Assembly (NCBI RefSeq): GCF_963921235.1
Contig: NC_086097.1
Span: forward strand, 81,904,001 to 81,968,000
Length of the DNA: 64,000 nucleotides
Source: Mobula hypostoma
Lineage: Eukaryota
Direction: 5' to 3'
Shown here: piece after piece, positions 6,413 to 60,250 of the stretch
How positions within the stretch are numbered: the stretch's first letter is position 1
Layout of the letters: each line of letters starts with the position of its first letter
Made by a program: the position numbers and the translations under genes
Notes under the pieces: model-generated
Seen by the model: only the letters and a program-made list of their open reading frames with translations
Told to the model about the DNA's origin: nothing
Databases searched by the model: none

Positions 6413-6739
6413 ATATCTTTCAACCTCCTTCTCTATTTAGATATTCAAATATCCATCACCATTTAAAACTTAAAGCAATGGCACTGCTAAGTTTTTATCT
6501 CATATAGTTTGAGATAATACATTAATCCATTGGTTGTCCGAATATTTAGTCTTGTCCATTCCATGCTGCCTTTGCTGCTCAGCATCAATGTCGTTGGTCT
6601 ACTTTATTATTTCACCAACATGACTGGTATGCTCTTCAATCCTTGTCATTGAAACAGTGCTCAGAGGAACATAGGATACGCCCTAATAGTCCAATGAGCC
6701 GTGCCACCCAGCAACACACCTATTTAACCCTAACCTAAT

Positions 6740-7680
6740 CAAGCTCCTTTGTCACCTCCCAAAAAAGCTTGATCACGTTTACAGGTCATGACCTACTCTG
6801 AAAAAGCCATGCTGACTGTCCCTAAGCAAGGCATGCCTTTCCAAATGCACGTGAATTCTATCCCTCAGTATCTTCTCCAGTAGGTTCCCTACTGACGTGA
6901 AGCTCACTGGCCAATAATCTCCTTGGTTATCCCTACTTCCCCCCTTGATAAAAAGGCCCAGCATTTGATACTCTCCTGTCTGCTGGGAGCTTGCCTGTTG
7001 CTAGTGAGGGCACAAAGATTCTTGTCAAAGCTCCAGCATTCTCCTCACTTGCTTCAATATTCTAGGAATATGCCACCAGGCCCTGGGGCATCCATCTTAA
7101 TTCTTTTCAGAAGAGCCTGCAATATTTCCTTAGTCTCAAAATGTCCCACTCTGTTTTCACTATCCTTAAAATCCCTTTCCTTGGTAAGTACCCACACAAA
7201 GTACTCACTTAGTACCTCAGCCACTTGCTCTGATGCCAAATACAAATTCTCTCCTTTATCCTTGAGTAGATCTACCCTCTCCTTCGTTATCCTCTTTTTC
7301 TTAATATAAATGTATTAATGTCTTGGGATTCTCCTTGATCCCACTGGCCAAGGATACTTCATGGCCCCTTTAGGATATCCTAATTTCCTGTTTGAGCACT
7401 TTCCATTATCTTTATATTCCACAGGCCCAATCTGGTTTTAGCTTTCTAAATATTATGCATGCTTCTTTTTTCTTCCTGACTATATCAAGGATTTCTCTGG
7501 TCATCTGTTGTTCCATTACCTTACCGGTCTTGCCCTTCCTCCTTACCTGAACATTTCAATCCTGGTGTCCCATCAACTGGTCTCTAATGCCCCAGTCAAT
7601 GCCCCTTGGCTCCAGTCTTTCTGTATTTGTCCTCCCCCAATTTAACACCTTCCCACAAGATCTATCTTAAAGCATAGTGT
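6740..7680 (-). mobile_element. Degraded CR1 ORF2 fragment
   Basis: GDYWPVSFTSV..LEKILRDRI..SQHGF; APGPGGI. Confidence 0.8.
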
Positions 7681-7684
7681 GTAG

Positions 7685-7946
7685 TGTCACGTACCCCGTG
7701 ACGGGAATAAAGAACCAGCAGAGTTGGAAAACACTTTGGAGTCCAGTATTGCTATTAACTAATAATATTTATTAGTAACTACGCAATACAGTAGTATAAA
7801 TGCAGATATATCAAACAGGTTAGCAATGATTATTTATAAGTAAGTGTGGAAATATATGAAAACCAAGCTTCAAGTCTAGGGGTAAATAGATAGTCTTATG
7901 ATGATGAGTAAAGTTCAGTTCAGTTCGTGGTATTGAGTTGAGTAGT

Positions 7947-7990
<44 letters not shown>

Positions 7991-8512
7991 AGTCTTCAAG
8001 TGAACTGATGCTGTCGATCTTCCCTTTGTCCTCTGAAATCCTTCAGAAACCACAGAATGTGACCACAACAAAGCGGACCATTCTTCTGTGGTGGAATTAT
8101 CAACCCAGGCGAGGTTAACTCTCCACCGGTCACACTCTTTTCACACTGCGAGTGCTACTGATCGATCCGCCTGATCGATCCTCCAAAGCCCACTTTTTCT
8201 GTGGGCACGACAATGCTCATTCAGTGTTCAGAACCATGTGTCTGCAGGTCTAACCGCTGACCTTCTATTTATCTCACCGTGCTGAACACCAGCTGTCCAT
8301 CAAGCAGCTCCTCCCTTCTCTCTCTGTAAGAACACAGAAGCTGTTAGTGTCTTTGCAGAAAGTGTAAACAAACTGTGAGCAGTCCACCTCTCTCCCGCTC
8401 TCTCTCTCTCTCTCTTTCTCTCTCTTTTTAACAAGGTATCTGTGTTCCACAACTCTCTCTCTCTCTCTTTTCAAAAGCACAATTCATCGGGGTACTTCAG
8501 GACCCCGTCACG
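7685..8512 (-). mobile_element. Probable solo LTR with internal (GA)n/(CT)n tracts
   Basis: Ends TGTCACGTACCCCG... and ...CGGGGTAC..CCCGTCACG; no coding sequence; no clean TSD. Confidence 0.55.
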
Positions 8513-8513
8513 C

Positions 8514-9008
8514 TACACCCAGTCTCAACTTTACTCGGTACACCTGCTCATTAATGCAAATACATATCTAATCAGCCAATCATGTGGCAGCAACTCAATG
8601 CATAAGAGCATGTATTCATTATCAAGAGGTTTGGTTGTTGCTCAGACCAAATATCAGAATGGGAAGAAATGTGATCTAAGTGACTTTGACTGTGGAATGA
8701 TCTGAAACTGCTGATCTCCTGGGATTTTCACACACAACAATCTCCAGAGATTACAGAGGATGGTGCAAAAAACAAAAAAAGCATCTAGTGAGGAACAGTG
8801 CTGTGGGTGAAAGTTAATGAGAGAGAATGTACTGCCTGGTTCAAACTGACAGGAGGGCAACAGTAACTCAAATAATCACATGTTACAACAGTGGTGGGCA
8901 GAAGAGCATCTCTGAATGCACAAAACCTCAAACCTTGAAATGGATGGGTTACAGCAACAGAAGACCATGAACATACACTCAGTAGCTGTTTTATGAGGTA
9001 CAGGAGGT
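8514..9008 (+). mobile_element. Non-autonomous Tc1/mariner derivative (transposase N-terminal HTH remnant)
   Basis: From ATG 8659: MGKKCDLSDFDCGMI..SETADLLGFSHTTISRDYRGWC..; later LKWMGYSNRRP; TACAC(T/C)CAGT..GGTACA terminal motif at 8514 and ~8974. Confidence 0.8.
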
Positions 9009-9103
9009 CACTTGCTTGCTGAGCTGACTCTTTAGTCTATGTGATCATGTCTGTCCTCCAAATTTGGTACCCGGTTCCTGCTTTCTCCCTACGTTTAAAG
9101 TAA

Positions 9104-11200
9104 GACAAGACCATAAGACATAGGAGCAGAACTAGGCTATTCAAGGCCATTGAGTCTCCACCACTCATTATGGCTGATCCATTTCCCTCTCAACTCCATT
9201 CTCCAGCCTTCTTCCTGTAACCTTTTATGCCCTGACTAATCAAGAACCTATCAATCTCAGCTTTAAGTACACGCAATCACCCGGCCTCCACAGCTGCCTT
9301 TGGCAACGAATTCCACAGATTCATCACCTTCTGGCTGAAGAATTTCCTCCTCATTCCTGTTCTAAATGGATGTCCATATATTCTGAGGCTGTGCCCTCTG
9401 GTCGAAGATTACCCCACCGCAGGAAACATACTCTCCACATCCACTCTATCTAGGCCTTTCAGCATTTTGATAGGTTTCAATAAGATCTCCTCTCATTCTA
9501 AATTCCAGCGAGTGCAGGCCCAGAGCCATCAATTTCTCCTCATCTGATAAGCCTTTCCATCCCAGAATCATTCTCATGAACCTCCTCTGAACCCTCACCA
9601 ATGTCAGCACATCCTTTCTTTTAGCCCAAAACTGCTAACAATACTGCAAGTAAGGCCTTGCCAGTGGCTTATAAAGCCTCAGCACTACCTCATTGTGGAT
9701 GCCAACATACCACCTGCCTTCTTAACCACTTGCTGTTCCCAAATGCTTAATTTTATTGACAGCTGCGCAAAACACTTGGGTCTTATTGTACATCCCCTCT
9801 CTTAATCTAAGTCTGTTCAGAAAATAATGCCTTCCTATTATTACCACCAAGTGCATAATCTCTCCTTTATCCACATTATATTACAGCTGCCATTTGCTCT
9901 CTCATTCACTCTGTCCAATTCACAACGGAGCCATCTCTGAATTCTCCTCACAGATCGCAATCTCAGCCACCTTTGTGTCATCTATATATCTGAAGATAAT
10001 AGATGTAATTCCCTCAATCCTAACTATGTAGTGTGAATAGCTGTTGTCTGGGCACAGAACTCGACTGGTCTCTGCCTGCTATGCTAACAAGAACCAGAAC
10101 TTTTCTACTCTTTGTTACCCATATCCACCCAGTTCTCTATCCATGACTATGCATTAAACCCAATCCCACCTACTTTAACTCTGCTCATTAATCTCTTCTG
10201 TGGGACTTTGTCGAAAGCTTTCTGAAAGTCCAAATACACCAGTGGTCTCCAACCACCGGGCCGCGAACCGGTACCGGGCTGCAAAGCATGTGCTACCAGG
10301 CCGTGAGGAAACGATATGTGTCAGCTGCACCTTTCCTCATTCCCTGTCACGCACTGTTGAAATTGAACATAGGGTTGCCAACTGTCCCGTATTTGCCAGG
10401 ACATCCTGTATGTTGGGCTAAATTGGTTTGTCCCGTATTTCCCCGCTAAGGTAGAGCGTTCCTATGAAACCTTTCGTGCCAAAATGGCGTGAAGCGAAGA
10501 AGCAATTACCATTAATTTATATGGGAAAAATTTCTGAGTGTTCCCAGATCCTAAAAAAACCTAACAAATCATACCAATAACACATAAAACCGAAAATAAA
10601 TAACACTAACATATAGTAAAAGCAGGAATGATATGATAAATACACAGCCTATATAAAGTAGAAATAATGTATGTACAGTATAGTCAGGAAGATGAAGGGA
10701 AAACCGATTTGTGGGGAAAAAAAATCAGCACGTGCGCGCATGCGCACATCACATGTGCACACAGGTGCCCGCGCAAGACTTCATGGTCAAGGTAGTCTTT
10801 CCAGGGGTAAAGTGTCCCAGGATTTGACTACAACTTTTGTCCCTTATTTGGGAGTGAGAAAGTTGGCAACTCTAACTGTAAAAGACATGTTGAGGTGAGA
10901 TTAACCCTACTTGAACACCCACACCCCCCCCGCCCACCCCCCGGTCAGCAGGTCCGCAAGAATATTGTCAATATTAAACCGGTCCACGGTGCAAAAAAGG
11001 TTGGGGACCCCTGAAATACACCATATCCATTAGATCCTCCCAGCCATTGTATCATGACATCCTCAAAACAATTATAGCAAATTTATCAAGTGTGATCTCC
11101 CTTTCCTGTCCATACTCCAAATACTTTTCCAAATACTCTGCTGTCATGTCCTTAATAATGAACTTCAGCATTTTTTCCGCTACTGATATTGGTATACTGG
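9104..11200 (-). mobile_element. CR1 3' fragments (two ages), interrupted by a hAT MITE
   Basis: (ATAAGAC)n-type tail at 9104-9120; CR1 RT-like sequence resumes at 11022 after the hAT TSD. Confidence 0.75.
10240..11013. mobile_element. Composite non-autonomous hAT element (outer CAG(T/G)GGT-TIR element carrying a TAGGGTT-TIR element), copy 1
   Basis: TIRs CAGTGGTCTCCAACC / GGTTGGGGACCCCTG; perfect 8-bp TSD AAATACAC (10232-10239, 11014-11021); inner element 10370-10909 flanked by ATTGAACA/CTTGAACA. Confidence 0.9.
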
Positions 11201-11414
11201 ACTGACGGCAGTGGAGGTGGGAGAAATATGCTCTGTGGATCAATCAGCATCTACAGAGGTAAAGGGATGGATTGAGACATCAGGACGGAGAGTACTGAGG
11301 AAAGATAGCCAGTGCACAGAAGTGAGAGGGAGGGGTGAGACAGAAGTCGGTAGGTGATAGGTGGAAAGGTATCAAAAGAAAAATGAGGTAAGGGGAGCCA
11401 GGTGGGAGAAGGTG

Positions 11415-11565
11415 ATGGGACTAGGTAATGTTGGGGATTGGGGAAAAGGAATGGGACTATGTAATGCTGGGGATTGGGGAAAAAGAATGGGACTAGGTAA
11501 TGTTGGGGATTGGGGAAAACGAATGGGACTAGGTAATGTTGGGGATTGGGGAAAAGGAATGGGAC
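11415..11565. repeat. 36-bp G-rich minisatellite, ~4.2 units
   Basis: Unit ATGGGACTAGGTAATGTTGGGGATTGGGGAAAAGGA starting at 11415, 11451, 11487, 11523. Confidence 0.95.
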
Positions 11566-11589
11566 AGGTGAATAGAGGAAGAAAGACAT

Positions 11590-12225
11590 TGGGTGGACTG
11601 GTGAGAGTGGGAAAGGACTGGGGGGTCTGGGCTATTCGAAACTAGAAAATTCAATGTTCATATCATTGAGCTGTAGGCCACCCAAGCAGAATACAAGGTG
11701 CTGTTCTTCTAATTTGTGCCTGGCTTCATCCTAGTAGTGAAGAAGGCCAAGGACAAACAGGCTTCTGTGAGAATGGGAAGTGAAGTTGTCATGGCATGAA
11801 ATAAGAAGCTGAGGTTGGCCCAATGTGGACTGCAGAACGGCCTGCTGGTCTAACCAGCTAGGAGGAGGCCACATCACAAGTATAGAATGCTACAGATTAG
11901 ATTGGAGGAGGTGCATGTGAATCTCTGCCCCACCTGAAAGAATGTTTATGTCCTTGGTTGGCGATGAGGAAGGAGGTATGGGGGTGAGTATTACATCTCT
12001 GACAGTTGCAGAGAAAGGTGCCCAGGGATGGGGAGGGCCGGATGGCAAGGTGAAGGCCACATTAACCATGATAGAGGAAAAGCCACTTTTTCTGAGCAAG
12101 GAGAGCAACTCAGGAGTCCTGGAGTGGAAAGTCTCATCTTGAGAACAGATAATGTGAAGACAGAGAAACTGAGAGGAGGAGACAAGGTGGGAGGAGGTAA
12201 AGTCAAGGTAGCTATGGGAGTCTGG
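11590..12225 (-). mobile_element. Old Penelope-like element fragments
   Basis: ORF 11890..12357(-) has KPDSHSYLDFTSSH..SQFLCLHIICSQDETFHSR (PLE RT thumb); 11640-11920 resembles the GIY-YIG 3' region of 42298-43249. Confidence 0.7.
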
Positions 12226-12469
12226 TTTCTTCCACATTCCAAAGATATACAGGTCATTTGGTAAATTGGCCACAGTAAAATGTCCCTCGGTAGAATTTGT
12301 CTGCTTGGTGGAACAAGATTTGGCAAGAGTTGGGGAAGATAGAATCCAAGACATCATGTAAGAAGTATAATTCTATGAGTATAGCTATATCACAATGCTG
12401 TTCGACTAGATTGTGGGATAGTTCTTCCAATTAAGGTACGATTCCCCATTTGTTCACCATGAGGAGTTT

Positions 12470-13075
12470 TTCCTAACCTCGGTCCTAAAAGGCTTCCCCT
12501 TTATCCTCAAACTGCCTCGTTCTGGACTTCCCCCACATCGGGAACAATCATCCTGCATCTAGCCTGTCCAATCCCTTTAGGATTTTATACGTTTCAATAA
12601 GATCCCCCCTCAATCTTCTAAATTCCAACGAGTATAAGCCTAGTCGATCCAGTCTTTCATCATATGAAAGTCCTGCCATCCCAGGAATCAATCTGGTGAA
12701 CTTTCTTTGTACTCCCTCTATGGCAAGAATGTCTTTCCTCAGATTAGGGGACCAAAACTGCACATAATACTCCAGGTGTGATCGCACCAAGGCCTTGTAC
12801 AACTGCAGTAGTACCTCCCTGCTCCTGTACTCGAATCCTCTTGCTATGAATGCCAGCATACCATTCGCCTTTTTCACCGCCTGCTGTACCTGCATGCCCA
12901 CTTTCAATGACTGGTGTATAATGACACCCAGGTCTTGTTGCACCTCTCCTTTTCCTAATCGGCCACCATTCAGATAATAATCTGTTTTCCTTTTTTTGCC
13001 ACCAAAGTGGATAACCTCACATTTATCCACATTAAATTGCATCTGCCATGAATTTGCCCACTCACCCAACCTATC
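12470..13075 (-). mobile_element. Young CR1 ORF2 C-terminal fragment
   Basis: 173-aa open frame WQMQFNVDKC..LYKALVRSHLEY..LRGDLIETYKI. Confidence 0.92.
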
Positions 13076-14174
13076 AGGTGGTATGGACCATAGTCCAGTA
13101 GTTTTATTGTTTTAACTAATAAAGTGAGATACTTATTTTTAACCAATTTAATTAAATGAAATTAAATTCCGTACTGCCTTGGTAGAAATTAGTATAATCT
13201 ACCCAGCACTATTAAACTGGTTCGCTTAGTTATTCATTCAGCGTACCACTGGAAACAATCAAGTCCCACTCCAAAGATGAGAACAACTGGACAACGAGGA
13301 AACCAGAGATGTTACTTTTTGATTCATAGATTAAACTATATGCCTGACTATCCTCACAGGAGGACTTAAGACACAATGGTACTGTTAGAAGATAGATCTG
13401 GAGTTGTACTGGTGAGAGTAATTCCTCAGTTAACTCACTAGAACAGATATCAGGTCACTGTTGCTTGTGAAACGTAACTATGAGCAAGTTCTCTACTCCT
13501 TTTAGAACTTCCAGAAGTGCAATAAATTGTGAATGAGATAACACCCTGGCCATAAGTCCCAAATAAGATGAAATATATGCATTAAGTTTCATGGCAATTT
13601 AAAGAAAAATGAATATTAATATCTTCCCAAGGTGTCAGCTGCAATGAGCAATTTTATTTTTAAATACCTACTTTCTTTGCACATCAATTGCAAGAGTTCT
13701 GCTCTTGTTTATCAACTGTTTCCATCTACAATGGCTGTAAAAAGTTTCATTTGTGAGTGACAGTACAGCACACACATGACTTGAAAATCCAGGTGGAATG
13801 ATTGATTCTGTAATCAGGTAACATTCTGTATCAAAGAAAGTTGACAATTTAATACAGAAAGGGAGCAGCAGGAGGGAAAATCACAAATCACAGTTAATAA
13901 AAGATCAAAAGCTTACTCCAACAATGTGAATATTTGATATCTGTCTGAATTGATGCAAGTATAGAGATATCCACAGCTTTTGCACAATTTGTTGAATCCA
14001 ATTTATACTTCTACCACTCATCAACAAATAAACGTAGTTAAGATGCACTATGCTACCTCAAGAGCTGCCAATGAATTCTAGTTTGTAAACACGGATTGAA
14101 GTGAATAGGCAGTACAGCCAATATGTTACCAGTTAGCTCTGCACCTGACTTGAAGAGCTTGTTCTTCACTTAAT

Positions 14175-15683
14175 AGAATCAGAATCAGGTTTATTATCAC
14201 CGGCATGTGACGTGAAATTTGTTAACTTAACAGCAGCAGTTCAATGCAATACATAATCTAGCAGAGAGAGAGAGAAAAAATAATAATAAATAAAATAAAA
14301 CATAATAAATAAACAAATAAATCAATTACGTATATTGAATAGATTTTTTAAAATGTGCAGAAACAGAAATACTGTATATTAAAAAAAGTGAGGTAGTGTC
14401 CAAACCTTCAATGTCCATTTAGGAATCGGATAGCAGAGGGGAAGAAACTGTTCCTGAATTTCTGAGTGTGTGCCTTCAGGCTTCTGTACCTCCTACCTGA
14501 TGGTAACAGTGTGAAAAGGGCATGCCCTGGGTGCGGGAGGTCCTTAATAATGGACGCTGCCTTTCTGAGACACCGCTCCCTAAAGATGTCCAGGGTACTT
14601 TGTCGGCTCGTGCCCAAGGTGGAGGTGACTAGATTTACAACCTTCCGCAGCTTCTTTCGGTCCTGTGCAGTAGCCCCTCCATACCAGACAGTGATGCAGC
14701 CTGTCAGAATGCTCTCCATGGTACAACTATAGAAGTTTTTGAGTGTATTTGATGACTTGCCAAATCTCTTCAAACTCCTAATAAAGTATAGCCACTGTCT
14801 TGCCTTCTTTATAACTACATCAGTATGTTGGGACCAGGTTAGGTCCTCAGAGATCTTGACACGGAGGAACTTGAAGCTGCTCACTCTCTCCACTTCTGAT
14901 CCCCCTATGAGGATTGGTATGTGTTCCTTTGTCTTACCCTCCCTGAAGTCCACAATCAGCTCTTTCGTCTTACTGACATTGTGCCAGGATGTTGCTGTGA
15001 CACCACTCCACTAGTTGGCATATCTCACTCCTGTATGCACTCTTGTCACCACCTGAGATTCTACTAACAATGGCTGTATCGTCAGCAAATTTATAGATGG
15101 TATTTGAGCTATGCCTAGCCACACAGTCATGTGTACAAAAGAGTAGAGCAGTGGGCTAAGCACACACCCTTGAGGTGTACCAGTGTTGATCGTCAGCAGG
15201 GAGGATATGTTTTCACCAATCTGCACACACTGTGGTCTTCCAGTTAGGAAGTCGAGGATCCAGAGGGAGGTACAGAAGCCCAGGTTCTGCAACTTCTTAA
15301 TCAGGATTGTGGGAATGACGGTATTAAATGCTGAGCTGTAGTCGATGAACAGCATCCTGACGTAACAGCATCCTGTGTTGCCTAGGTCGTCTAAAGTCGT
15401 GTGGAGAGCCATTGAGATTGCGTTTGCCATTGACCTATTGTGGCAATAGGCAAATTGCAATGGGTCCAGGTCTTTGCTGAGGCAAGAGTTCTGTCTAGTC
15501 ATGACCAACCTCTCAAAGCATTTCATCACTGTCGATGTGAGTGCTACCAGGCGATAGTCATTAAGGCAGCCGACATTATTCCTCTTTGGTACTGGTATAA
15601 TTGTTGCCTTTTTGAAGCAAGTGGCAACTTCTGCCCATAACAGTGAGAGGTTGAATATGTCCTTGAATACCCCACTAGTTGGT
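14175..15683 (-). mobile_element. Rex1/Babar-type LINE, 5'-truncated
   Basis: [45 protein letters not shown]-terminus LLPSGRRYRSL..NSFFPSAIR; (GATTCT)n tail. Confidence 0.88.
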
Positions 15684-33983: not shown

Positions 33984-36214
33984 TACTTCACACTTATCTG
34001 GGTTGAACTCCATCTGCCACTTCTCAGCCCAGTTTTGTATTCTATCAATGTCCCACTGTAACCTCTGACAGCCCTCCACACTATCCACAACACCTCCAAC
34101 CTTTGTGTCGTCAGCAAACTTACTAACCCATCCCTCCACTTCTTCATCCAGGTCATTTATAAAAATCACAAACAGTAGGAGTCCCAGAACGGATCCCCAA
34201 GGCATTTCACTGGTGACCAACCTCCATGCAGAATATGACCCGTATACAAACACTCTTTGCCTTCTGTGGGCAAGCCAGTTCCGGATCCACAAAGCAATGT
34301 CCCCTTGGGTTCCATGCCTCCTTATTTTCTCAATAAGCCTTGCATGGCTTGCCTCCTTACTTTCTAAATAAGCCTTATCAAATGCCTTGCTGAAATCCAT
34401 AAACATTACATCTACTGCTCTTCCTTCATCAATGTGTTTAGTCACATCCTCAAAAAATTCAATCAGGCTCGTAAGGCACAACCTGCCCTTGACAAAGCCA
34501 TGCTGACTATTCCTAATCATTTATACCTCTCCGAATCTTCATAAATCCTGCCTCTCAGGATCTTTTCCATCAACTTATCAACCACTGAGGTAGGACTCAC
34601 TGGTCTATAATTTCCTGGGCTATCTCTACTCCATTTCCTGAATAAAGGAACAATATCTGCAATCCTTCAATCCTCCGGAACCTCTCTCGTCCCCATTGAT
34701 GATTCTAAGATCATCGCCAGAGGCTCAGCAATCTCCTCCCTCTCCTTCCACAGTAGCCCGGGTAACATCTCCTCTGGTCCCGGCGACTTATCCAAGGGGC
34801 ACATTCTCTTTCTTAATATCTACATGCTCAAGCTTTTCAGTCTGCTGCAAGTCATCACTTCAATCACCAAGATCCTTTTCCATAGTGAATACTAAAGTAA
34901 AGTATTCATTAAGTACCTCTGCTATTTCCTCCAGTTCCATACATACATTCCCACTGTCACACTTGATTGGTCCTATTCTTTTCATCTTATCCTCTTGCTC
35001 TTCACGTACTTGTAGAATGCCTTGGGATTTTCCTTAATCCTGCCTACCAAGGCATTCTCATGGCCCCTTCTGGCTCTCCTAATTTCCTTCTTAAGCTCCA
35101 TCCTATTAGCCTTATTATTTTCTAGATCTCTAACATTACCTAGCTCTCTGAACCTTTTGTAAGCTTTTCTTTTCTTCCTGACTAGATTTATTACAGCCTT
35201 TGTACACCACGGTTCCTGTACCCTACCATAAATTCTCTAAATTCTCTGTCTCATTGGAACGTACCTATGCAGAATGCCACACAAATATCCCCTGAACATT
35301 TGCCACATTTCTTCCGTACTTTTCCCTGAGAACATCTGCTTCCAATTTAAGCTTCCAATTTCCTGCCTGAGAGCCTCATAATTCCCCTTACTCCAATTAA
35401 ACACTTTTCTAACTTGTCTGTTCTTATCTCTCTACAATGCTATTGTAAAGGAGATAGAATTATGATCACTATCTCCAAAACGCTCTCCCACTGAGAGGTC
35501 TGACACCTGACCAGGTTCATTTCCCAGTACCAAATCAAGTACAGCCTCTCCTCTTGTAGGCTTATCTACATACTGTGTTAAGAATCCTTCCTGAACACAC
35601 CTAACAAACTCCATCCCATCCAAACCCCTCGCTCTAGGGAGATGCCAATCGATATTTGGGAAATTAAAATCTCCCATCACGACAACTCTTACACCTTTCC
35701 AGGATCTGTTTCCCTATCTGCTCCTTGATATCCCTGTTACTATTGGGCAGCCTATTAAAAACACCCAGTAAAGTTATTGACCCCTTCCTGTTCCTAACCT
35801 CCACCCACAGAGACTCCATTGACAATCCCTCCATGGCGTCCACCTTTTCTGCAGCCGTGACACTATCTCTGATCAACAGTGCTATGCCCCCACCTCTTTT
35901 GCCTCCCTCCCTGTCCTTTCTGAAACATCTAAAACCCGGCACTTGAAGTAACCATTCCTGTCCCTGAGCCATCCAAGTCTCTGTAATGGCCACCACATCA
36001 TATCTCCAAGTACTGTACCACGCCCTAAGCTCATCCGTTTTGTTCACAACACTCCTTGCATTAAAATAGACGCATCTCAAACCTTTGGTTTGAGCGCGTC
36101 CCTTCTCTATCACCTGCCTATCCTCCCTCTCGCACTGTCTCCAAGCTTTCTCTATTTGTGAGCCAACCGCCTCTTCCCCAGTCTCTTCAGTTCGGTTCCC
36201 ACCCCCCAACAATT

Positions 36215-37210
36215 CTAGTTTAAACTCTCCCCAATAGACTTAGCAAACCTCCCCTCCAGGATATTGGTCCCCCTCAGATTCAAGTGCAACCCGTCCTTTT
36301 TGTACAGGTCACTCCTGCCCCAAAAGGGGTCCAAATGATCCAGAAATCTGAATCCCTGCTCCCTGCTCCAATCCCTCAGCCACACATTTATCCTCCACCT
36401 CATTCTATTCCTATTCTCACTATCGCATGGCACAGGCAGTAATCCCGAGATGACTGCCTTTGCAGTCCTGCTTCTCAACTTCCTTCCTAACTCCCTGTAG
36501 TCTTTTTTCAGGACCTCTTCCCTTTTCCTACCTATGTCATTGGTACCAATATGTACCATGACCTCTGGCTGTTCTCCCTCCCACTGCAGGATATCTTGGA
36601 CAAGATCTGAAACATCCCAGACCCTGGCACCTGGGAGGCAAACTACCATCCGACTTTCTTTCCTGCGTCTACAGAATTGCCTGTCTGACCCCCTAATTAT
36701 AGAGTCCCCTATCATTACTGCCTTCCTCTTCCTTTCCCTACCCTTCTGAGCCATAGGGCCAGAGTCTGTGCCAGGGACATGGCCACTGTCACTTCCCCCA
36801 GGTAGGCTGTCCACCCCAACAGTACTCAAACAGGAGTACTTACTGTCAAGGGGTACAACCACAGGGGTACTGTCTAGTACCTGACTCTTCCCCTTCCCCC
36901 TCCTCACTGTGACCCACTTGTCTGTCTCCCGTGGCCCCGGTGTGACCACCTGCCTATAACTCCTCTCTATCACCTCCTCGCTCTCCCTGACCTGGCGAAG
37001 GTTATCGAGCTGCATCTCCAGTTCCCTAACTTGGTCCCTTATGAGCTGCAGCTCGACACACCTGGTGCAGATATGGCCGTCAGGAGGCTGGGAGGCTCCA
37101 GGACCTCCCACATCTGACACAGAGCACAGAAAATTGGCCTCACACACATACCTCCTCCTTTCCACAAATAGCACCAGTAAATCTACCTCGCCTCGTCCCG
37201 TTACTGCCAA
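36215..37210 (-). CDS. CR1 ORF1 protein with SGNH/GDSL esterase domain (start uncertain)
   Basis: Open 331-codon frame: CTRC plus coiled coil, then IGDSIIRG, CLPGARV, VHIGTND, DGLHLN. Confidence 0.85.
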   Translation of the reverse strand: MAVTGRGEVDLLVLFVERRRYVCEANFLCSVSDVGGPGASQPPDGHICTRCVELQLIRDQVRELEMQLDNLRQVRESEEVIERSYRQVVTPGPRETDKWVTVRRGKGKSQVLDSTPVVVPLDSKYSCLSTVGVDSLPGGSDSGHVPGTDSGPMAQKGRERKRKAVMIGDSIIRGSDRQFCRRRKESRMVVCLPGARVWDVSDLVQDILQWEGEQPEVMVHIGTNDIGRKREEVLKKDYRELGRKLRSRTAKAVISGLLPVPCDSENRNRMRWRINVWLRDWSREQGFRFLDHLDPFWGRSDLYKKDGLHLNLRGTNILEGRFAKSIGESLN

Positions 37211-37724
37211 AGCCCATTGAGCCGAAGCCCTATCACTCTGCTGCCTCTCACTCCGCTGCCCGCTGGATATGGCGGTCTTCTTTTTAAACCTTTTGCGCTC
37301 TACTGGCTGACGTCACACGCCTGCGCAGTCTTGCCTCTCTTTTACTCTGAGTGGTAAAAACGGCCTTTGTTCCGAAAATCAGCCGTTCACTTGCAGCCTT
37401 CTTGCTCTGATGTTGTGAGTTCCTTCTGCTAATTGTACTTGATCTCCATAACCATGTTTCACCAAGACTTGAAGTCATCCATGCCTTCCTGGGTGCTCCT
37501 TCTCCATTTTGATCAGTCGAAGGATTGATTGCCTTGTGTCAGCAAGGATGTGACATCTTCAAAATGGCTTTGATATCACCCTCAAACTGTTTTTCCATTC
37601 TTCTAGCTAATGCCTTGTCATAACTGTGGCCAGCGCAGTGAATCTGTCCGAGCATGGTCAGAGTCTTGATGCTGAGAGAGGAAGTTGCTTCATCTATCCT
37701 GACAATGGATTTGGAAAACTTTGC

Positions 37725-37972
37725 TGTTACATTTTGAAACTCTGAAAAATAAAATTAGTTGAAAGGAAAAGAAGGGAGTCTGAAATGCAGGTCTAACTTC
37801 ATGTTTACTTTACGCAAGATGTGTAAATTTCACATGGTAGTGTCATGACGTATGCAATTCATTGAACTTTACAAATAAGCCATAATGAATTATTTAAACA
37901 AACAAGAATGTTTAATCAAACAATATATTTACAATATTACTCAAATACTACTGAAATATTAAATACACAACA
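37725..37972 (-). mobile_element. Solo Gypsy LTR (same family as 49432-49667)
   Basis: TG..CA ends, 5-bp TSD TTTGC; its reverse complement shares a 35-nt exact block ATTTGAGTAATATTGTAAATATATTGTTTGATTAA with the LTR at 49432. Confidence 0.92.
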
Positions 37973-39971: not shown

Positions 39972-41548
39972 ATACAAAGTAAACTTATTATGAAAGTACG
40001 TGCATGTCACCCTGAGATTCACTTTCTTGCAGGCATTCACAGATAATGCAAGAAGCACAATAGAATCAATGAAAGACTGCACCCAACCAAATGGACAAAC
40101 AACCAATGTGCAAAAGACAATTGTGCAAATACAAAAAGAAAGAACAAATAATTATTAATAACAATAATAACATATTGTCCCAATAGTAATATCTACAACA
40201 GGTGTCATCCCAAAGTCACTACACAATAGCATTAAACAATTAGGGCTACACAGTAAGATCTATGTAAGTCTCCAGAAAGCCACAATGCTAAACACCACTA
40301 GAATAGTCTGAAAGTTCCTAGCAATTGACAAATGAGCATACTTGGCTATACCCATATCTCAGGTCTTACCAGCTTGAGCTGAGAAAAAATAAATAAAAAT
40401 AATAATAATAATAATAAATAAATAATAAATATCAAGAACATGAGATAAAGAGTCCTTGAAAGTGAGTCCATAGACTATGGAACAGTTCAGTGATGGGGTA
40501 AGAGAAGTTGAGTGAAGTTATCTTCTCTGGTTCAAGAGCCTGATGGGTGAGGGGTAATAACTGTTCCTGAACCTGGTGGTGTGGGTCCTGAGGCTCCTGT
40601 ACCTCCTTCCTGACTGCAGCAGCGAGAAGAGAACATGGCCTGGATGGTGGAGGTCCTTGAAAATGGATGCTGCTTTCCTGTAACAGTGCTCCATGTAGAT
40701 GTGCTCAGTGGTGGGGAAGGCTTTGCATGTGTTGGACTGGGCTGTATCTACTACTTCTGCAAGATTTTTCATTCAAGGGCATTGGTGTTTCCAAACCAGG
40801 TTGTGATACAACCAGCCAATATACTCTCCACCGCACATCTACAGAAGTTTGTCAAAATGTTAAAGGGCATGCTGAATCTTCGCAAACGTCTAAGAAAATT
40901 GAGGTGTTACCATGCTCTCTTTGTAATGGCATTTATGTGCTGGATCCTCAGAAATGATTACACAGAGGAATTTAAAGTTGCTGACCCTCTCCACCTCTGA
41001 TTTCCTGATGAGGTCTGCCTCATGAACCTCCAGTTTCCTCCTCCTGAAGTCAATAACCAGTTCCTTGTTCTTGATGGTATTGAGTAAGAGATAGTTGTTG
41101 TGGCAGCATTCAACCAGAATTTCAATCTGAGTCATCACCACCTTTGATTCAGCCTTCGACAGTGGTGTCCTCAGCAAACAAATATGGCTTGGGAGCTGTG
41201 CTTAACCTCACATTCATAAGGTTAAAGCGAGTGGAGCAGGTGGCTGAGCACACAGCCTTGTGGTGCACCTGTGCTGATGGAGATTGTGGAGATGTTGTTG
41301 CCAATCCAAACTGACTGGGGTGTGCAAGCAAAAAAATGGAAGATCCAGGTGCACAAGGAGGTATTGAGCTCTTGGAGCTTGATTAGTTTTGAGGGGACGA
41401 TAGTATTGAATGATGAGCTTTAGACAATGAAGAGCATGCTGATGTAGGCAGCTTCACTGTCCAGATGTTCCAGTGTTGAGTGGAGAGCCAGTGAAATGGC
41501 ATCTCTTGTTGACCTACTGTGACAGTCGGCAAATTGGAATGGATCCCC
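39972..41548 (-). mobile_element. Old Rex1/Babar-type LINE
   Basis: DPFQFAD..DAISLALHSTLEHLD..MLFI; KELVIDFRR; LLQSGRRYRSLRTHTTRFRNSYYP. Confidence 0.85.
40171..40400 (+). mobile_element. R4/Dong-like RLE retrotransposon 3' fragment in a (TAA)n tract
   Basis: HIVPIVISTTGVIPKSLHNSIKQLGLHSKIYVSLQKATMLNTTRIV*KFLAI; TAA repeats on both sides. Confidence 0.75.
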
Positions 41549-45190: not shown

Positions 45191-45953
45191 TTATTTTACT
45201 GTCAACTAATAAATCATTAAATTTATTAAAAGGCTGAATCAAAGGTGGTGACAAATCAACATGTAGGAGGGAGATTGAAAGTCTGGTTGAATTGTGCTAT
45301 AACAACTGCCTCTCACTCAACGCCAGCAAAACCAGAGAGCTGATTATCAACCACAGGAGGAAGAACTCGGAGGTCATGAATTTATATTCATTAGGGGAAT
45401 GGAGCTGGGGAGGGTCACTAGCTTTAAATTTCTTTGTATTAACATATTAAAGGATCTGTCCTGGGACCAGTGCATACATATCATCACAAGGAAGGCTCAG
45501 CAGCTATGAAAAGCCCAGTAAATGGCAGAATTCATGGTTTAAAAAACGGTAGATACTGGGCTAGAATAATCATGAAAAAAGAGCAGAAATGGCTGGCTAT
45601 ATCAGAAAGATTTATGCATTTGATTCCACAACAGATAACTGGATTTTGTGTACTGAGCAAATTGAACAGTATTTTGAAGCAAATAAAATAGCCAATGAGA
45701 AGTGAGTACCAATTTTTAGGGTGCATTGGATTTAAAAACATATAGTTTGGTTCAAAGTTTAACAGCTCCACCCAAACCAGCTGAAATGAGCTTTGCTGAT
45801 ATCATAAAAGTAATGCAGGTACACAGAACAGAAACTACCGTTGATTGCAAAACGCTTTAGGTTTCATAAGCAGAATCAAAGGGGTGTCCATTTCAGCATA
45901 CATGGCTGAACTGAAGAAGTTGTCTGAGCATGGTCAGTTTAGTGATGGACTTA

Positions 45954-47054
45954 GTATTTAATCAGTAAACTCCAAGACCTGGTCCTCAATACTCCCTTGT
46001 GCAATTGGATCCTGGATTTCCTCACTTGTAGGCCCCAGTCAGTTTGGATTGGCAAAAACAACTCCTCCACAATCTCTATCAGCCCAGGTGCACCACAGGG
46101 ATGTGTACTAAGCCCCCTGCCCTAGTCACTTTACATCTATGACTGTGTGGTATGTACAGCTCCAACACCATATACGATTTTCCCATGACACCACTGTTGT
46201 GGGCTGTATCAAAGGTGCTGTTGAATCAGCGTACAGGAGGGAGATTTAAAAACTTGGCTGAGTGGTGTAATAACAACTCACTCAATGTCAGTAAGACATT
46301 GTAGACTTCAGGAGAGGGAAGCCCGAGGACCATGAGTCAGTAATCATCAGAGGATCGGACGTGGAGAGGGTCAGTAACTTTAAATTCCAGGGTGTCACTC
46401 TCTCAGGATTTCCTGGACCCATCTTATAAATATAATTAAGGATAAAGCAAGACAGTACCTCTATTTCCTCAGGTGTCTGCAGAGATTCAGCATGTCATCA
46501 AAAACCTTTGGCAAACTTCTATAGAAGTATGGTGGAAAGTGTGCTGTTTGGCTACATTACGACCTGGTATAGGAACATCAATGCTTTTGAGTGGAAAATC
46601 CTACAAAAGGTAGTGGATCCAGCCCAGTACATCATGGGTAAAGCCCTCCCAGCCATTGAGCACATCTATATGAAATGTTGCCGTGGAAAAGCAGTATCCA
46701 ACATCAAAGATCCCCACCACCCAGGCCATGCTCTTTTCTAGCTGCTGACATCAGATAGAAGGTACAAGAGCCTCAGGACTTGCACTACCAGGTAAAAGAA
46801 CAGTTACTACCTCTCAACCATCAGGCTCTTAAACAAAGAGCTACACTAATTTAAGAACTCTGTTATATTATTACTTCATGCTTGTTATTTATTGCTATTT
46901 ATTTATATCTGCATTTGCACGGTTTGTTTACAGTTCCTGATGTTTACAGTTACTGTTCTATAGATTTCCTAAGTCTGCCCGCAGAAAAAAGAACCTCAGG
47001 GTTGTATGTGGTGACATGTAAGTACTCTGATAATAAATTTTGCTTTGAACTTTG
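45954..47054 (+). mobile_element. Rex1/Babar-type LINE inserted in Gypsy gag
   Basis: [11 protein letters not shown] at ~46087; NFYRSMVESVL..IKDPHHPGHALF; (ACTTTG)n tail. Confidence 0.85.
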
Positions 47055-47293
47055 AATAATGGATTGAGAGATTGTTTAGTTCATGGAATCATACAAGAAA
47101 GCATTCAAGTACAGCTCCTAACTGATGCACAATTCAAAGATACTAAACTGAAGCCTGCTGTTTTCCAACTAAGAATTTATTCTGGAGAAAAGATAACTCA
47201 AGATGGGAATGACATTTGTTACAGTGAAATACAGCAGCCAACAAGCCACATTAGGCTTGTGTGTGGTAAAAACAGGAGGGCCAGCATTTGTTG

Positions 47294-48370
47294 TAGTGGT
47301 ATCGTAGTAGTAGTCATAGTTTAATGATCCCGGCGGAAATTGGTTTTCGTTACAGTTGCACCATGAATAATAAATAGTAATAGAACCATAAATAGTTAAA
47401 TAGTAATATGTAAGTTATGTCAGTAAATTATGAAATAAGTCCAGGACCAGCCTATTGGCTCAGGGTGTCTGACCCTCCAAGGGAGTAGTTGTAAAGTTTG
47501 ATGGCCACAGGCAGGAATGACTTCCTATAACGCTCTGTGCTGCATCTCGATGGAATGAGTCTCTGGCTGAATGTACTCCTGTGCCCACCCAGTACATTAT
47601 GTAGTGGATGGGAGACATCGTCCAAGATAGCATGCAACTTGGACAGCATCCTCTTTTCAGACACCACCGTCAGAGAGTCCAGTTCCATCCCCACAACATC
47701 ACTGGCCTTACGAATGAGTTTGTTGATTCTGTTGGTGTCTGCTACCCACAGCCTGCTGCCCCAGCACACAACAACAAACATGATAGCACTGTCCACCACA
47801 GACTCGTAGAACATCCTCAGCATCGTCCGGCAGATGTTAAAGGACCTCAGTCTCCTCAGGAAATAGAGACGGCTCTGACCCTTCTTGTAGACAGTCTCAG
47901 TGTTCTTTGACCAGTCCAGTTTATTGTCAATTCGCATCCCCAGGTATTTGTAATCCTCCACCATGTCCACACTGACCCCCTGGATGGAAACAGGGGTCAC
48001 CAGTACCTTAGCTCTCCTCAGGTCTACCATCAGCTCCTTAGTTTTTTTCACATTAAGCTGCAGATAATTCTGCTCACACCATGTGAAAAAGTTTCCTACC
48101 ATAGCCCTGTATTCAGCCTCATCTCCCTTGCTGATGCATCCAACTATGGCAGAGTCATCCAAAAACTTCTGAAGATGACAAGACTCTGTGCAGTAGTTGA
48201 AGTCCGAGGTGTAAGTGGTGAAGAGAAAGGGAGACAAGGCAGTCCCCTATGGAGCCCCAGTGCTGCTGATCACTCTGTCGGACACACAGTGTTGCAAGCA
48301 CACGTACTGTGGTCTGCCAGTCAGGTAATCAAGAATCCATGATACCAGGGAAGCATCCACCTGCATAGAC
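47294..48370 (-). mobile_element. Young Rex1-type LINE inserted in the Gypsy protease region
   Basis: 261-aa ORF SPFLFTTYT..QKFLDDSAIVG..KGQSRLYFLRRL..SFLPVAIKLYN. Confidence 0.9.
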
Positions 48371-48545
48371 TTGGGAGATTGATTGGCCGAGACAACTGCA
48401 ACCTGATTGGAGATCCATCCACAATTTGCATGCCACATCTCCTCCAATAGTGTCAACTGAAAGCAAATTAAGAAAGGTACTGGATGATGCCTCAACTGTC
48501 TTCATGCTGTGCAACATGAACCGTTGCCCAACAGAGGGCAAGCAG

Positions 48546-49098
48546 GTGCTGATGCCAACCTCTGTGCCTCTGGTTGGAAAGCGTATTGGATCAAGGAAAG
48601 ACCATGCTGCTCAGAGGAAGTACGAAAGTCGTGAAAGCTGTCATCTGACTACAACAGTTTTTGCAAGCAACATATCAGAGAAAGCTCCTGGTAGATTAAT
48701 CAAGCAGTTGCTTGCAAAATAAGGCTTCGTTTTAAAGTGGAAGAGAGTTCAAGGAGCTTCAGGAAAGTTGCAAGCATTTGGCTTTTGTGAACCCGAATCT
48801 GCTCTGTTTACATTAAGGTTAATGCATGAACTTCAAGTGGGATCAAAAAGCTGCTTGAAAAAGTAAATGCAAAGACTAAAGCCCAGTTGGATAAATGGAA
48901 GACCAAAAAGGAGCCAAGGGAGATATGAAAACAGAGGATTCATCAGATGATATTGTGGATGCAGAAAGCAAGAGGACAGATCAGATCATAAAGGGAACAA
49001 TAGAAGGATTAATAAGAGAATACTCCAGTGAACTACATGCACATTCCCAAGATCAAGTTGCACAAACTAAAAGGTAAGAAAAGGAAGGAGAAGAAAGG
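48546..49098 (+). pseudogene. RBM25: Processed (intron-less) RBM25 fragment, RRM region
   Basis: VLMPTSVPLVGKRIGSRKDH..TTTVFASNISEKAPGRLIKQLLAK*GFVLKWKRVQGASGKLQAFGFCEPES..LRLMHELQVG/KLLEKVNAKTKAQLDKWK/..DQIIKGTIEGLIREYSSEL..KKRKEKK, matching RBM25 as recalled; stop at 48720-48722, an apparent 3-codon deletion and frameshifts. Confidence 0.93.
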
Positions 49099-49431
49099 TG
49101 TCCAGATCTTTCAGAACCACTTCCTGCCACCTGAGAGAACTCCTACAACCACCATGGAGAAGATCCAGATCCTGATACTTCACAGTGTCCTGTATCTTCA
49201 CAGCTACAGTTCTCACCTGCCATGCACAGTGATCTCCCTTGTCAGGAAAGACACTATCCCACAATGGTAAGAATATCTCCACAGCAATGAAATCTTCAGG
49301 TCCGAATGGGGCAATTTAAAAATTTGCTATGCTGTGGATGTCTGTATAGTAGTTGTACCATATTGCATACTATGTATATAGCTTAGCTGCATTCTATATA
49401 GAGTTAGAACGTATAGCTAAGCAGGGAGGAG

Positions 49432-49667
49432 TGCTGTGTATTTAATGCATCAGTAACATTTGAGTAATATTGTAAATATATTGTTTGATTAAGGAGTCTT
49501 GTTTATTTAGTTAATTCATTATGGGTTATGTGTAAAATACATGAATTGCTGATGTCATCATGCTATCATGTGATCAGAACCCACCTCGCTTAAAGTTAGA
49601 CTCACATTTTGGACTCTAGTCTTTTCCTTTAAATTAGCTTAATGTTTTGGAGTTACAAAATATAACA
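49432..49667 (+). mobile_element. 3' LTR of the RBM25-carrying Gypsy element
   Basis: TG..CA, immediately after the polypurine tract; homologous to solo LTR 37725-37972. Confidence 0.9.
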
Positions 49668-55253: not shown

Positions 55254-55704
55254 TCATAGTCATAGTCATAGGCATAGTCATACTTCATTGATCCCGGGGG
55301 AAATTGGTTTTCGTTACAGTTGCACCATAAATAATAAATAGTAATAGAACCATAAATAGTTAAATAGTAATATGTAAGTTATGTCAGTAAATTATGAAAT
55401 AAGTTCAGGACCAGCCTATTGGCTCAGGGTGTCTGACCCTCCAAGGGAGGAGTTGTAAAGTTTGATGGCCACAGGCAGGAATGACTTCCTATGATGCTCT
55501 GTGTTGCATCTCAATGGAATGAGTCTCTGGCTGAATGTACTCCTGTGCCCACCCAGTACATTATGTAGTGGATGGGAGACATTGTTCGAGATGGCATGCA
55601 ACTTGGACAGCATCCTCTTTTCAGACACCACCGTGAGAGAGTCCAGTTCCATCCCCACAACATCACTGGCCTTATGAATGAGTTTGTTGATTCTGTTGGT
55701 GTCT
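55254..55704 (-). mobile_element. Rex1-type LINE 3' end (same family as 47294-48370)
   Basis: Near-identical DTNRINKLI..GGSDTLSQ and 3' UTR; (ACTATG)n tail. Confidence 0.9.
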
Positions 55705-57561: not shown

Positions 57562-60250
57562 TAGGGACCACGTTAGGGAACAGGAGATACAGCTCGATGA
57601 CCTTCGTCTGGTCAGGGAGAGTGAGGAGGTGATAGAGAGGAGCTATAGGCAGGTGGTCACTCCAGGGCCTCAGGAGACAGATAAGTGGGTAACAGTCAGG
57701 AGAGGGAAGGGCAGCAGTCAGAGGCTAGAGAGTACCCCAGTGGCTGCCCCTTAACAATAAGTACCCCTGTTTGAGTACTGTTTGGTGGGGGGCGGGGCGT
57801 GGATGGCCTACCTGGGGGAAGCAACAGTGGCTGTGCCTCTGGCACACAGTCTGGCCCTGTGGCTCAGAAGTGTAGGGAAAGGAAGAGGAAGGCAGCAGTG
57901 ATAGGCGACTCTATAGTTAGGGGGTCAGACAGGCGATTCTGTGGACGCAGGAAAGAAACACAGATGGTAGTTTGCCTCCCAGGTGCCAGGGTCCGGGATG
58001 TTTCTGATCATATCCACGATATCCTGAAGTGGGAAGGAGAACACCCAGAGGTCATGGTACATATTGGTACCAATGACATAGGCAGGAAAAGGGAGAATGT
58101 CCTGAAAACAGATTACAGGGAGTTAGGAAGGAAGTTGAGAAGCAGGACCTCAGATTACTGCCTGTGCCACGCGACAGTGAGTATAGGAATAGAATGAGGT
58201 GGAGGAAAAATGTGTGGCTGAGGAATTAGAGCAGAGGACAGGGATTCAGATTTCTGGATCACTGGGACCTCTTTTGGGGCAGGTGTGACCTGTACAAAAA
58301 GGACGAGTTGCACTTAAATTCCTGGGGGGAACAATATCCTGGTGGGGAGGTTTGCTAAGGCTTTTGGAGAGTGTTTAAACTAGAATTGCTGGGGGGTGCG
58401 AACCAAACTGAAGAGACTGGGAAGAGGAGGTTGGCTCACAAATAGAGAAAGCTTGAAGGCAGTGCAAGAGGGAGGATAGGCAGGTGATAGAGAAGGGACG
58501 CGCTCAGACCAATGGTTTAAGATGTGTCTATTTTAATGCAAGGAGTATGATGAACAAAGCGGATGAGGTTAGAGAGTGGATCAGTACTTGAAGCTATGAT
58601 GTTGTGGCCATTACAGAGACTTGGATGGCTCAGGGGCAGGATTGGTTACTTCAAATGCTAGGCTTTAGGTGTTTCAGAAAGGACAGGGAGGGAGGAAAAA
58701 GAGGTGGGTGCATGGCACTGTTGATCAGAGATAGTGTCACAGCTGCAGTAAAGAAGGAAATCATGGAGGGATTGTCTATGGAGTGTGTGTGGGTGGAAGT
58801 TAGGAACAGGAAGGGGTCAATAACTCCACTGGGTGCTTTTTATAGACCACCCAATAGCAACAGGGACATCGAGGGGGAGATGGGGAGACATATTCTGGAA
58901 ATGTGTAATAATAACAGGGTTGTTGTGGTGAGAGATTTTAATTTCCCAAATATCAATTGGCATCTCCTTAGAGCCATAGGGTTAGATGGGGTGAAGTTTG
59001 TTAAGTGTGTTCAGGAAGGTTTCTTTTTTCTTTTTCATTCATATTTTATAAATTACATGAATACAAATACAAAATGCATAAGGATACAAGTAAATAATAC
59101 GAATTCCATTACATTTAAATCACAGTATCCCATATTCCAAATCAATCATGTAGAAAAAAAAGATTGAATTATGAAATGAAATAAAATAAAATAATTGCAT
59201 TTTATTTTAAAAAAATCTACCCCCACTACCAAAATGAGCTGGTTGGTAAAAAAAAAAGAAAAATACCTTACCATATGATATTGTAATAATAATGGCTCAG
59301 ATCCGTACTTTAATAACAGTTCAAAGATTGTGAAAATAATTCAGAAAGGGTCCCCATAACATTAGAAATTCATGTTTAGAATCAGGATTTGAACAATGAA
59401 TCTTCTCTAGATCAAGGCACAACATAACGTCAGATACCCATTGAACATGAGTGGGCAGGGCGGCCTCCTTCCACTTGAGCAAGATCGTCCTCCTGGCCAT
59501 AAGAGACATAAAGGCCAATACCCGCAAATTAGATGGCTTCAATTTTGTAGAACTATCCTCAACAATACCAAACAAGGCAGTAAAAGAATGTGTGTTCAGG
59601 AAGGTTTCCTGACACAATATGTAGATAAGCCTACAAGAGGAGAGGCTGTACTTGATCTGGTATTGGGAAATGAACCTGGCCAGGTGTCAGATCTCTCACT
59701 GGGAGAGCATTTTGGAGATAGTGATCACAATTCTATCTCCTTTACCATAACATTGGAAAGGGAAAGGAACAGACAAGTTAGGAAAGCACATAATTGGAGT
59801 GAGGGGAGGTATGAAACTATCAGACAGAAACTTGGAAGCATAAATTGGAAACAGATGTTCTCAGGGAAACATACGGAAGAAATATGGCAAATGTTCAGGG
59901 GATATTTGCGTGGGGTTCTGCATAGGTATGTTCCAGTGAGACAAGGAAAGGATGGTGAGGTATAGGAACCATGGTGTACAAAGGTTGTTGTAAATCTAGT
60001 CAAGAAGAAAAGAAAAAGAAAAGAAAAAAAGAAAAAAAGAAAAGAAGTGGAATGGGCTGCCAGCGACGGTGGTGGAGGCGGATACAATAGGGTCTTTTAA
60101 GAGCCTCCTGGATAGGTACATGGGGCTTACGTTTGTAGAAAAATAGAGGACTATGGGTAACCCTAGGTAATTTCTAAGTTAAGGACATGTTTGGCACAGC
60201 TTTGTGGGCTGAAGGGCCTGTATTGTGCTGTTGGTTTTCTGTGTTTCTAT
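57562..60250 (+). mobile_element. CR1 (partial ORF1 esterase, APE; RT deleted), same family as 32983-37408
   Basis: IGDSIVRG..HIGTND; AITETW; jumps from ORF2 linker via (GAAAA)n at ~60010-60045 to the 3' end; direct repeat GTAATT at 57556-57561 and 60251-60256. Confidence 0.9.
59024..59589 (-). mobile_element. L1 3' fragment with 19-bp TSD
   Basis: ALFG..ARRTILLKWK..LEKI..WGPFLNY; A-rich tail; TSD GTGTGTTCAGGAAGGTTTC at 59005-59023 and 59590-59608. Confidence 0.9.

Follow-up and report, generated by a model that had tools for sequence, protein, structure and literature searches.

How does a Gypsy retrotransposon come to carry part of a spliced host gene at the very place where its polymerase should lie? 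The question is raised by a 64,000-nucleotide (nt) stretch of the Mobula hypostoma genome (G000:C1:81904001-81968000; genome 3.48 Gb), here called the window and numbered from its first letter, in which the remains of a Ty3/Gypsy element with a long terminal repeat (LTR) enclose exons of rbm25 that encode an RNA recognition motif (RRM). We conclude that this is very probably a decayed, non-autonomous Ty3/Gypsy copy whose reverse transcriptase (RT), RNase H and integrase core were replaced by spliced rbm25 exons 3-10, likely through two microhomology-guided template switches on co-packaged rbm25 messenger RNA (mRNA). A sequence-only reading of the window had proposed the order gag, partial protease, RBM25, integrase tail, polypurine tract and LTR, interrupted by two nested long interspersed nuclear elements (LINEs). 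That order, with its flanks and parts, was borne out by related copies elsewhere in the genome (siblings), in which the sequence interrupted by the LINEs is continuous. The parts are as follows.

45509-45953, plus strand: remnant of the Gypsy leader and 5' part of gag, ATG at 45589, broken by stops and frameshifts; neither 5' LTR nor primer site is present
45954-47054, plus strand: nested LINE fragment 1, a later insertion; in siblings without it, 45953 adjoins 47055
47055-47132, plus strand: continuation of gag, followed by a deletion of ~470-500 nt (zinc knuckle and protease start)
47130-47288, plus strand: C-terminal part of the aspartic protease, aligned to siblings where the protease region of protein P0121 matches
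47289-48370, minus strand: nested LINE fragment 2, with Pfam RVT_1 and ALKBH8_N matches
48371-48494, plus strand: protease end and linker to the RT start, 81% to the pol-carrying sibling L116; in sibling L112 the same frame continues into RVT_1
48488-48494, plus strand: 5' junction, a 7-nt word common to the element and rbm25 exon 3, one base changed in the window copy; codon phase equal in both
48488-48497, plus strand: last 10 nt of host rbm25 exon 3, 9/10 identical
48498-48545, plus strand: host cassette exon 3b, 48 nt, in frame, 44/48 identical, AG/GT-flanked in the host gene
48546-48921, plus strand: host exons 4, 5 and 6 (RRM), spliced, identities 141/171, 51/58 and 125/147
48922-49087, plus strand: host exon 7; the deletion of exons 8-9 falls in the purine-rich stretch at its end
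49088-49096, plus strand: 3' junction, a 9-nt purine word common to host exon 10 and the integrase tail, not in integrase phase
49088-49418, plus strand: integrase C-terminal tail and 3' untranslated stretch, 74% to L116, continuing the L116 integrase frame
49419-49431, plus strand: polypurine tract, directly before the LTR
49432-49667, plus strand: 3' LTR, TG...CA, 236 nt, recognized from its sequence and by sibling alignment

The host segment and its donor gene

Window positions 48488-49096 are rbm25 exons joined end to end, 85% identical to the host gene, which occupies the minus strand of C1 at ~99.79-99.84 Mb, 18 Mb from the window; exons are numbered here after what we take to be the arrangement of the human gene. 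Their borders in the window copy fall at 48546-48716 (exon 4), 48717-48774 (exon 5), 48775-48921 (exon 6) and 48922-~49085 (exon 7), and five introns that measure 5805, 3425, 1738, 2778 and 4824 nt in the parental gene are absent. Long copies at other loci also join exons 7-8-9-10, bringing the introns removed to eight in total. A check for skipped introns had been proposed with the sequence-only reading, and parental rbm25 indeed has introns at every junction. The RBM25 segment had been placed at 48546-49098; its splicing and strand hold, but it begins at 48488, the end of exon 3 and exon 3b having been missed.

Exon 3b is an in-frame cassette of 48 nt between host exons 3 and 4 (G000:C1:99832586-99832633; L040:586-633). 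It is missing from the gar, paddlefish and Xenopus proteins compared and was included in the captured mRNA. The copies thereby preserve an old rbm25 isoform.

Protein comparisons were made with the window copy and with siblings. An open reading frame (ORF) of sibling L005 gave 365 protein-database matches at E<=1e-10 (best E 4e-58), and the 120 matches listed comprised RBM25-named or unnamed proteins only; gar RBM25 (P0077) matches window 48546-49053 at E 2e-48, and RRM_1 scores above the Pfam cut-off in L005 and L009. A search of PDB sequences with the window ORF returned 0 matches. To locate the host gene, a Pfam PWI search was tried and set aside (three places, none of them rbm25), and a protein search found it.

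The window copy itself is dead, as had been claimed. Translation of 48500-49130 yields an RBM25-like peptide broken by a stop at 48720 and by frameshifting deletions near 48842 and 48906, and a search of the 2 kb upstream found no 5' LTR (best local score 26). Neither poly-A nor a flanking target duplication was seen at its host segment, again in agreement with the earlier reading.

Sequencing runs (4/19 used) were compared with host exons 3b-6. Joints 4|5 and 5|6 were present in 4/4 runs and joint 3b|4 in X1 and X13; that these runs are RNA is a guess and chimeric DNA copies carry the same exon joints, so the joints do not count here as a sign of expression. In X9 and X13, diverged pieces that span joints give a hint of copies in related organisms; they are not linked to Gypsy flanks.

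The parent element and its pol-carrying siblings

A search with the integrase-tail sequence returned 30 loci, 11 of them (query included) with rbm25 exons upstream and 19 without; these 19, together with one long chimera, were extended for comparison. Several siblings proved to be elements of about 4.6 kb with the order LTR-gag-protease-RT-RNase H-integrase-tail-LTR, and in L116, L117 and L122 the domains RVT_1, RT_RNaseH, Integrase_H2C2 and rve score above Pfam cut-offs in Gypsy order. Since the pol-carrying L116 aligns both to window 48380-48504 and to 49087-49602, both flanks of the host segment come from one family, as the sequence-only reading required; its claim that RT, RNase H and the integrase core are missing where the host sequence sits is upheld likewise, siblings carrying pol at that place. 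L116 also aligns over the leader and 5' part of gag, and the chimeric sibling L191 aligns from 45509.

TG...CA LTRs, a polypurine tract and 5-bp target duplications mark the family as Ty3/Gypsy, and gag with its knuckle pattern presumably places it in a Mag-like clade. With RT, RNase H and the integrase core replaced by rbm25 exons, the chimera is not autonomous. The gag and protease pieces of the window gave no Pfam match and were named through siblings and P0121, whose own Pfam matches to gag, knuckle and protease are all below cut-off; the integrase tail at 49088-49418 has no Pfam match of its own. P0121 was the one match of a protein-database search with a sibling protease, which turned up no fused gag-RRM protein among 161 candidates, a weak negative. 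The gag-protease stretch is less complete than had been thought, the loss of ~470-500 nt at ~47130 (gag end, zinc knuckle and protease start) having escaped the earlier reading.

Host cargo is not a prerequisite for spread. Five siblings have lost one and the same part of the integrase core and two the region from RNase H to integrase, none of them with host DNA, and since siblings share these plain internal deletions, shortened forms have spread without cargo. All of the plain deletion derivatives rejoin at the same integrase-tail purine word as the RBM25 chimera, and this word may be a recombination hot spot or the edge of sequence needed in cis. They make up at least two subfamilies, found at L123-L129 (e.g. 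G000:C91:19953600-19959800).

A genome-wide rve search recovered other families, 0/30 loci matching the family tail or LTR. Its matches L054-L080 point to a different, much younger and abundant Gypsy family with pol frames of >1,000 amino acids (aa) in several rows, and a few matches (L051-L053, L056, L059 and L068) look like retroviral integrases.

The junctions

For the 5' junction, 12 pol-carrying or deleted siblings and 30 chimeras were lined up, a few of them decayed at the junction. Siblings and chimeras are alike up to the 7-nt word, which is also found 10 nt before the end of host exon 3; past it the pol siblings continue into RT and the chimeras into the last exon 3 codon and exon 3b. 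The fusion is in frame with gag-protease, the codon phase being equal in element and host. In L008 one open frame runs from the protease end into the RRM, and in L112 the same frame runs into RT.

At the 3' junction of long chimeras, exons 8 and 9 and the first ~26 nt of exon 10 are followed by the integrase tail at the 9-nt purine word. This fusion is out of integrase phase, and a stop follows within about 56 codons in nearly all copies. A microhomology had been suspected at ~49088-49097; it is real (49088-49096), but in long copies the host contributes it from the start of exon 10, and the window copy has no exons 8-9. That the capture originally reached exon 10 had been overlooked, and the window copy is a shortened form. 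Under a rough uniform estimate, shared words at fixed sites would arise by chance with probabilities of 8e-4 (7 nt) and 8e-5 (9 nt). Splicing was considered as the cause of the junctions and ruled out, since the 5' junction falls 10 nt short of the end of exon 3 and the 3' one within exon 10.

In the sequence of events that we favor, rbm25 mRNA would have been co-packaged in a single capture event, and RT would have switched template twice, at the 7-nt and 9-nt shared words. The hybrid would have kept its LTRs, primer site and polypurine tract, and enzymes of its siblings would have copied it in trans, probably in a burst soon after capture. Exons 8-9 would have been lost by further slips in purine-rich repeats, and every copy would then have decayed without selection.

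A route known from retrovirology for the capture of oncogenes would lead to the same end. An element upstream of rbm25 exon 3 would have been fused to it by a DNA deletion at the 7-nt word, the spliced read-through RNA would have been packaged, and a single switch at exon 10 would have restored the 3' end, with the later history as in the sequence of events above. Double template switching had been proposed from the outset and the microhomology at both ends fits it, but deletion, read-through and one switch fit too: this route agrees with all sequence facts, the in-frame 5' fusion included. Two LTRs of the family (L044:4648-4890 and L047:4404-4635) do occur upstream of rbm25 exon 2, at distances of 36 and 66 kb; they are the only family LTRs seen near the gene, however, and both point against its direction. 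The parental gene has an intact exon 3, and 140 kb around rbm25 hold no same-strand remnant of family LTR, tail or linker (the query did not include gag). Though the main rival, this route is in our view quite unlikely.

Highly improbable is a LINE-made processed pseudogene of rbm25 that inserted in the Gypsy element and later lost its poly-A and target duplication, together with pol, through deletions. LINEs are abundant, and two have inserted into the window copy. Such a history would nevertheless need two precise deletions, each ending in a word common to mRNA and element. Moreover, the captured segment ends in exon 10, far from the rbm25 3' end at ~99.79 Mb, and neither of its ends is an mRNA end; none of the 51 callable copies described below has poly-A at the 3' junction, and the window copy lacks a target duplication around the segment.

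Copy number, mobility and age

A search of the genome with the host segment gave 2,891 first-look candidates, of which 40 were scored and found 79-83% identical to the window copy. A 22-nt pattern across the chimeric 5' junction has 570 genome matches within 1 mismatch and the corresponding parental pattern 1,246, the chimera amounting to about one third of the family's junction-bearing copies; the reversed patterns, run as controls, gave 0 matches for both. Four of 30 loci from the host-segment search match the junction pattern within one mismatch, and on that basis the total number of chimeric copies is extrapolated to about 4,300 (95% range 1,900-15,000). All of the 70 chimeric-junction loci fetched (of 570) continue into rbm25 complementary DNA (cDNA). 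The amplified RBM25-carrying family suspected from the window is thus real, and its loci share the junction. With thousands of RBM25-like RRM fragments in the genome, gene annotation and counts of retrocopies will be misled.

Among the 70 loci, 19 could not be called owing to insertions or truncation; the 51 callable ones comprise 7 long copies in which exon 8 is present, 16 intermediate copies and 28 short copies like that in the window. Exons 8-9 are absent from 44 of the 51, and exons 3b-7 are kept in most. In some chimeras (L026:1501-2808, L190 and L184) the protease-RBM25 stretch or pieces of exons 6-7 are duplicated in tandem, as template jumps made again and again should bring about.

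TG...CA LTRs and 5-bp target duplications around chimeras imply that the chimera itself transposed. In five chimeras with both ends at the expected place, the duplications match at 5/5, 5/5, 4/5, 3/5 and 1/5 positions. Both LTRs were available at 13 of 40 wide-flank chimera loci and at 5 of 7 scored siblings (at least 100 columns), and the mean Kimura two-parameter distance within pairs was 0.229 for the 13 chimeras vs 0.225 for the 5 pol-carrying or deleted siblings. With LTR pairs ~23% apart in both groups, the chimera transposed at the same time as its pol siblings. It thus appears to have been inserted by integrase, many times, while a pol-carrying helper was active. At slow vertebrate rates, which are uncertain, 0.11 per lineage would correspond to an age of the order of 100 million years.

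Selection on the captured RRM

Of 108 copies, 97 had 350 or more aligned columns, and among these no purifying selection on the captured frame was seen: dN/dS between copies is 0.76 by uncorrected counting, and synonymous, missense and nonsense changes are alike in frequency per possible change (transitions 0.050/0.058/0.054, transversions 0.018/0.018/0.014). Copies hold 1.6 in-frame stops on average, and their tree is near star-shaped (residual standard deviation 0.0094 vs 0.0087 shuffled). The copies thus appear to decay neutrally, and the RBM25 piece is most likely a passenger. The differences from the host that are common to at least 50% of copies are 22 synonymous and 4 missense (19 synonymous at the 70% level). 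Neutral evolution of a founder over the decay time of the copies predicts about 38 missense differences, and the 4 observed therefore point to a burst soon after capture or to a constrained founder.

Several points weigh against the account of two switches followed by neutral passenger life, and it should be read with these in mind. Template switching is recognized by its footprint only, and the sequence would look no different after a DNA-level deletion at the 5' junction. Host cDNA and L116 have 37 nine-letter words in common, many of them purine-rich, which makes the 3' word statistic weaker than the uniform estimate suggests; such a word is easy to meet by chance for a slipping enzyme. The short forms may be descendants of the long form or products of a second switch at exon 7, and frame tracking over gag (70 copies) is scrambled by indels. 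Host drift alone predicts 13.6 synonymous differences (P 0.02 for 22, 0.10 for 19). This excess is a weak hint against a pure passenger, and nothing else points to a role of the RRM or to an escape of the donor.

Such a role would have taken one of two forms. Either a Gag-protease-RBM25(RRM) polyprotein was made, its own protease freeing the RRM in the particle or the nucleus, or small RNAs from the copies acted on host rbm25 mRNA and drove change at synonymous sites; in both cases the cargo would have favored spread. We consider this unlikely, despite an in-frame 5' fusion that L008 keeps open from the protease end into the RRM. One in three junctions would be in frame by chance. The callable copies do tend to keep exons 3b-7 while losing exons 8-9, but they were picked by their 5' junction, which favors retention of 5' exons. 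The 4 near-fixed missense against 22 synonymous differences, and a distance-based stem dS of 0.29 vs a dN of 0.01 inside the RRM, form a missense deficit that is expected from purifying selection on the host and a short element stem. Plain deletion derivatives spread too, and the dN/dS and per-change frequencies between copies speak against the idea. No stop-free frame above 284 aa occurs among the 150 best of 5,602 protein candidates. Were the idea true, the chimera would be to retrotransposons what a gag-onc virus is to retroviruses, and would have taken over a third of its family.

Comparison with known systems

Acutely transforming retroviruses carry gag-onc fusions. They are like the RBM25 chimera in that host coding sequence stands in frame behind gag, replaces pol and makes the virus dependent on a helper (mentioned in PMC4299795); they differ in that no selection on the captured gene is shown for the chimera. 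In crocodilian endogenous retroviruses (ERVs) with KIT-ligand or nectin3, too, old vertebrate LTR-type elements replicated after uptake of host mRNA. According to PMC4299795, those elements are of the retroviral kind, retain pol (env being what nectin3 replaces), are present in 6-9 copies and evolve under purifying selection, whereas the RBM25 chimera has lost pol and no selection on its copies was seen.

LTR-mediated retrocopies, including their secondary retroposition, were defined by Tan et al. 2016 (PMC5131818), whose cases have few copies each. Like our locus, they hold part of a spliced mRNA flanked by discontinuous portions of a single LTR element, with microsimilarity at each switch; they lack the hallmarks of L1 (a LINE), undergo secondary retroposition as non-autonomous elements and are often in sense and in frame. 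The RBM25 chimera has discontinuous flanks, introns removed, microsimilarity at both ends and secondary retroposition with shared switch points. The cases of PMC5131818 are of recent origin and low in number (15 polymorphic in fly, 1-8 per other species, 1-5 copies of Bs1), whereas here one capture has 570 counted and about 4,000 estimated copies with a nested deletion series. Maize Bs1 (PMC5131818, PMC13317346), one of the plant gene captures reviewed in PMC13317346, is likewise an LTR element with spliced host gene fragments and switch points common across copies; in the accounts consulted it has three donor genes, 1-5 copies and a translated hybrid, as against one donor and thousands of neutrally decaying copies. 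Drosophila TART-A with its nxf2 fragment (PMC7785250) resembles the chimera as a retroelement with part of a host RNA-processing gene in many copies. It is non-LTR, and targeting of the donor by PIWI-interacting RNAs (piRNAs) was shown for it, whereas the RBM25 chimera is known here from sequence alone; TART-A/nxf2 is, by the same report, a precedent for a captured fragment that acts on its donor.

The mechanism, then, was already known (Tan et al. 2016), and what is new, against the cases as these sources present them, is an unusually large scale. In titles and abstract openings returned by our literature searches, which did not extend to the repeat databases Repbase and Dfam, no RBM25-carrying retrotransposon was found, and the main text of PMC13320880 has 0 occurrences of 'rbm25'. 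Capture followed by non-autonomous life, the last and usually hypothetical step of the LTR template-switch model, is seen here in a vertebrate and on the scale of a whole genome; the donor gene, the helper, the two switch points and the series of deletions can all be read. The case also makes testable whether captured fragments of essential genes exert small-RNA pressure on their donors in vertebrates.

Other features of the window

At 37725-37972, on the minus strand, lies a solo LTR of the same Gypsy family, as had been noted; it is a separate insertion, 75% identical to the window 3' LTR and flanked by an exact 5-bp target duplication. LINE fragment 1 (45954-47054) is 72% like window 40530-41368. 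Positions 47311-47740 of LINE 2 have a 96% identical copy at 55275-55704, 8 kb away, and this LINE is therefore far younger than the Gypsy element that it interrupts. Inverted copies of a LINE 5' region, 86-90% alike, occupy 35242-37312 (minus strand) and 57563-59948 (plus strand), with a 365-aa open frame at 36215-37312. A tandem array of about five copies of a 36-bp unit lies at 11379-11594.

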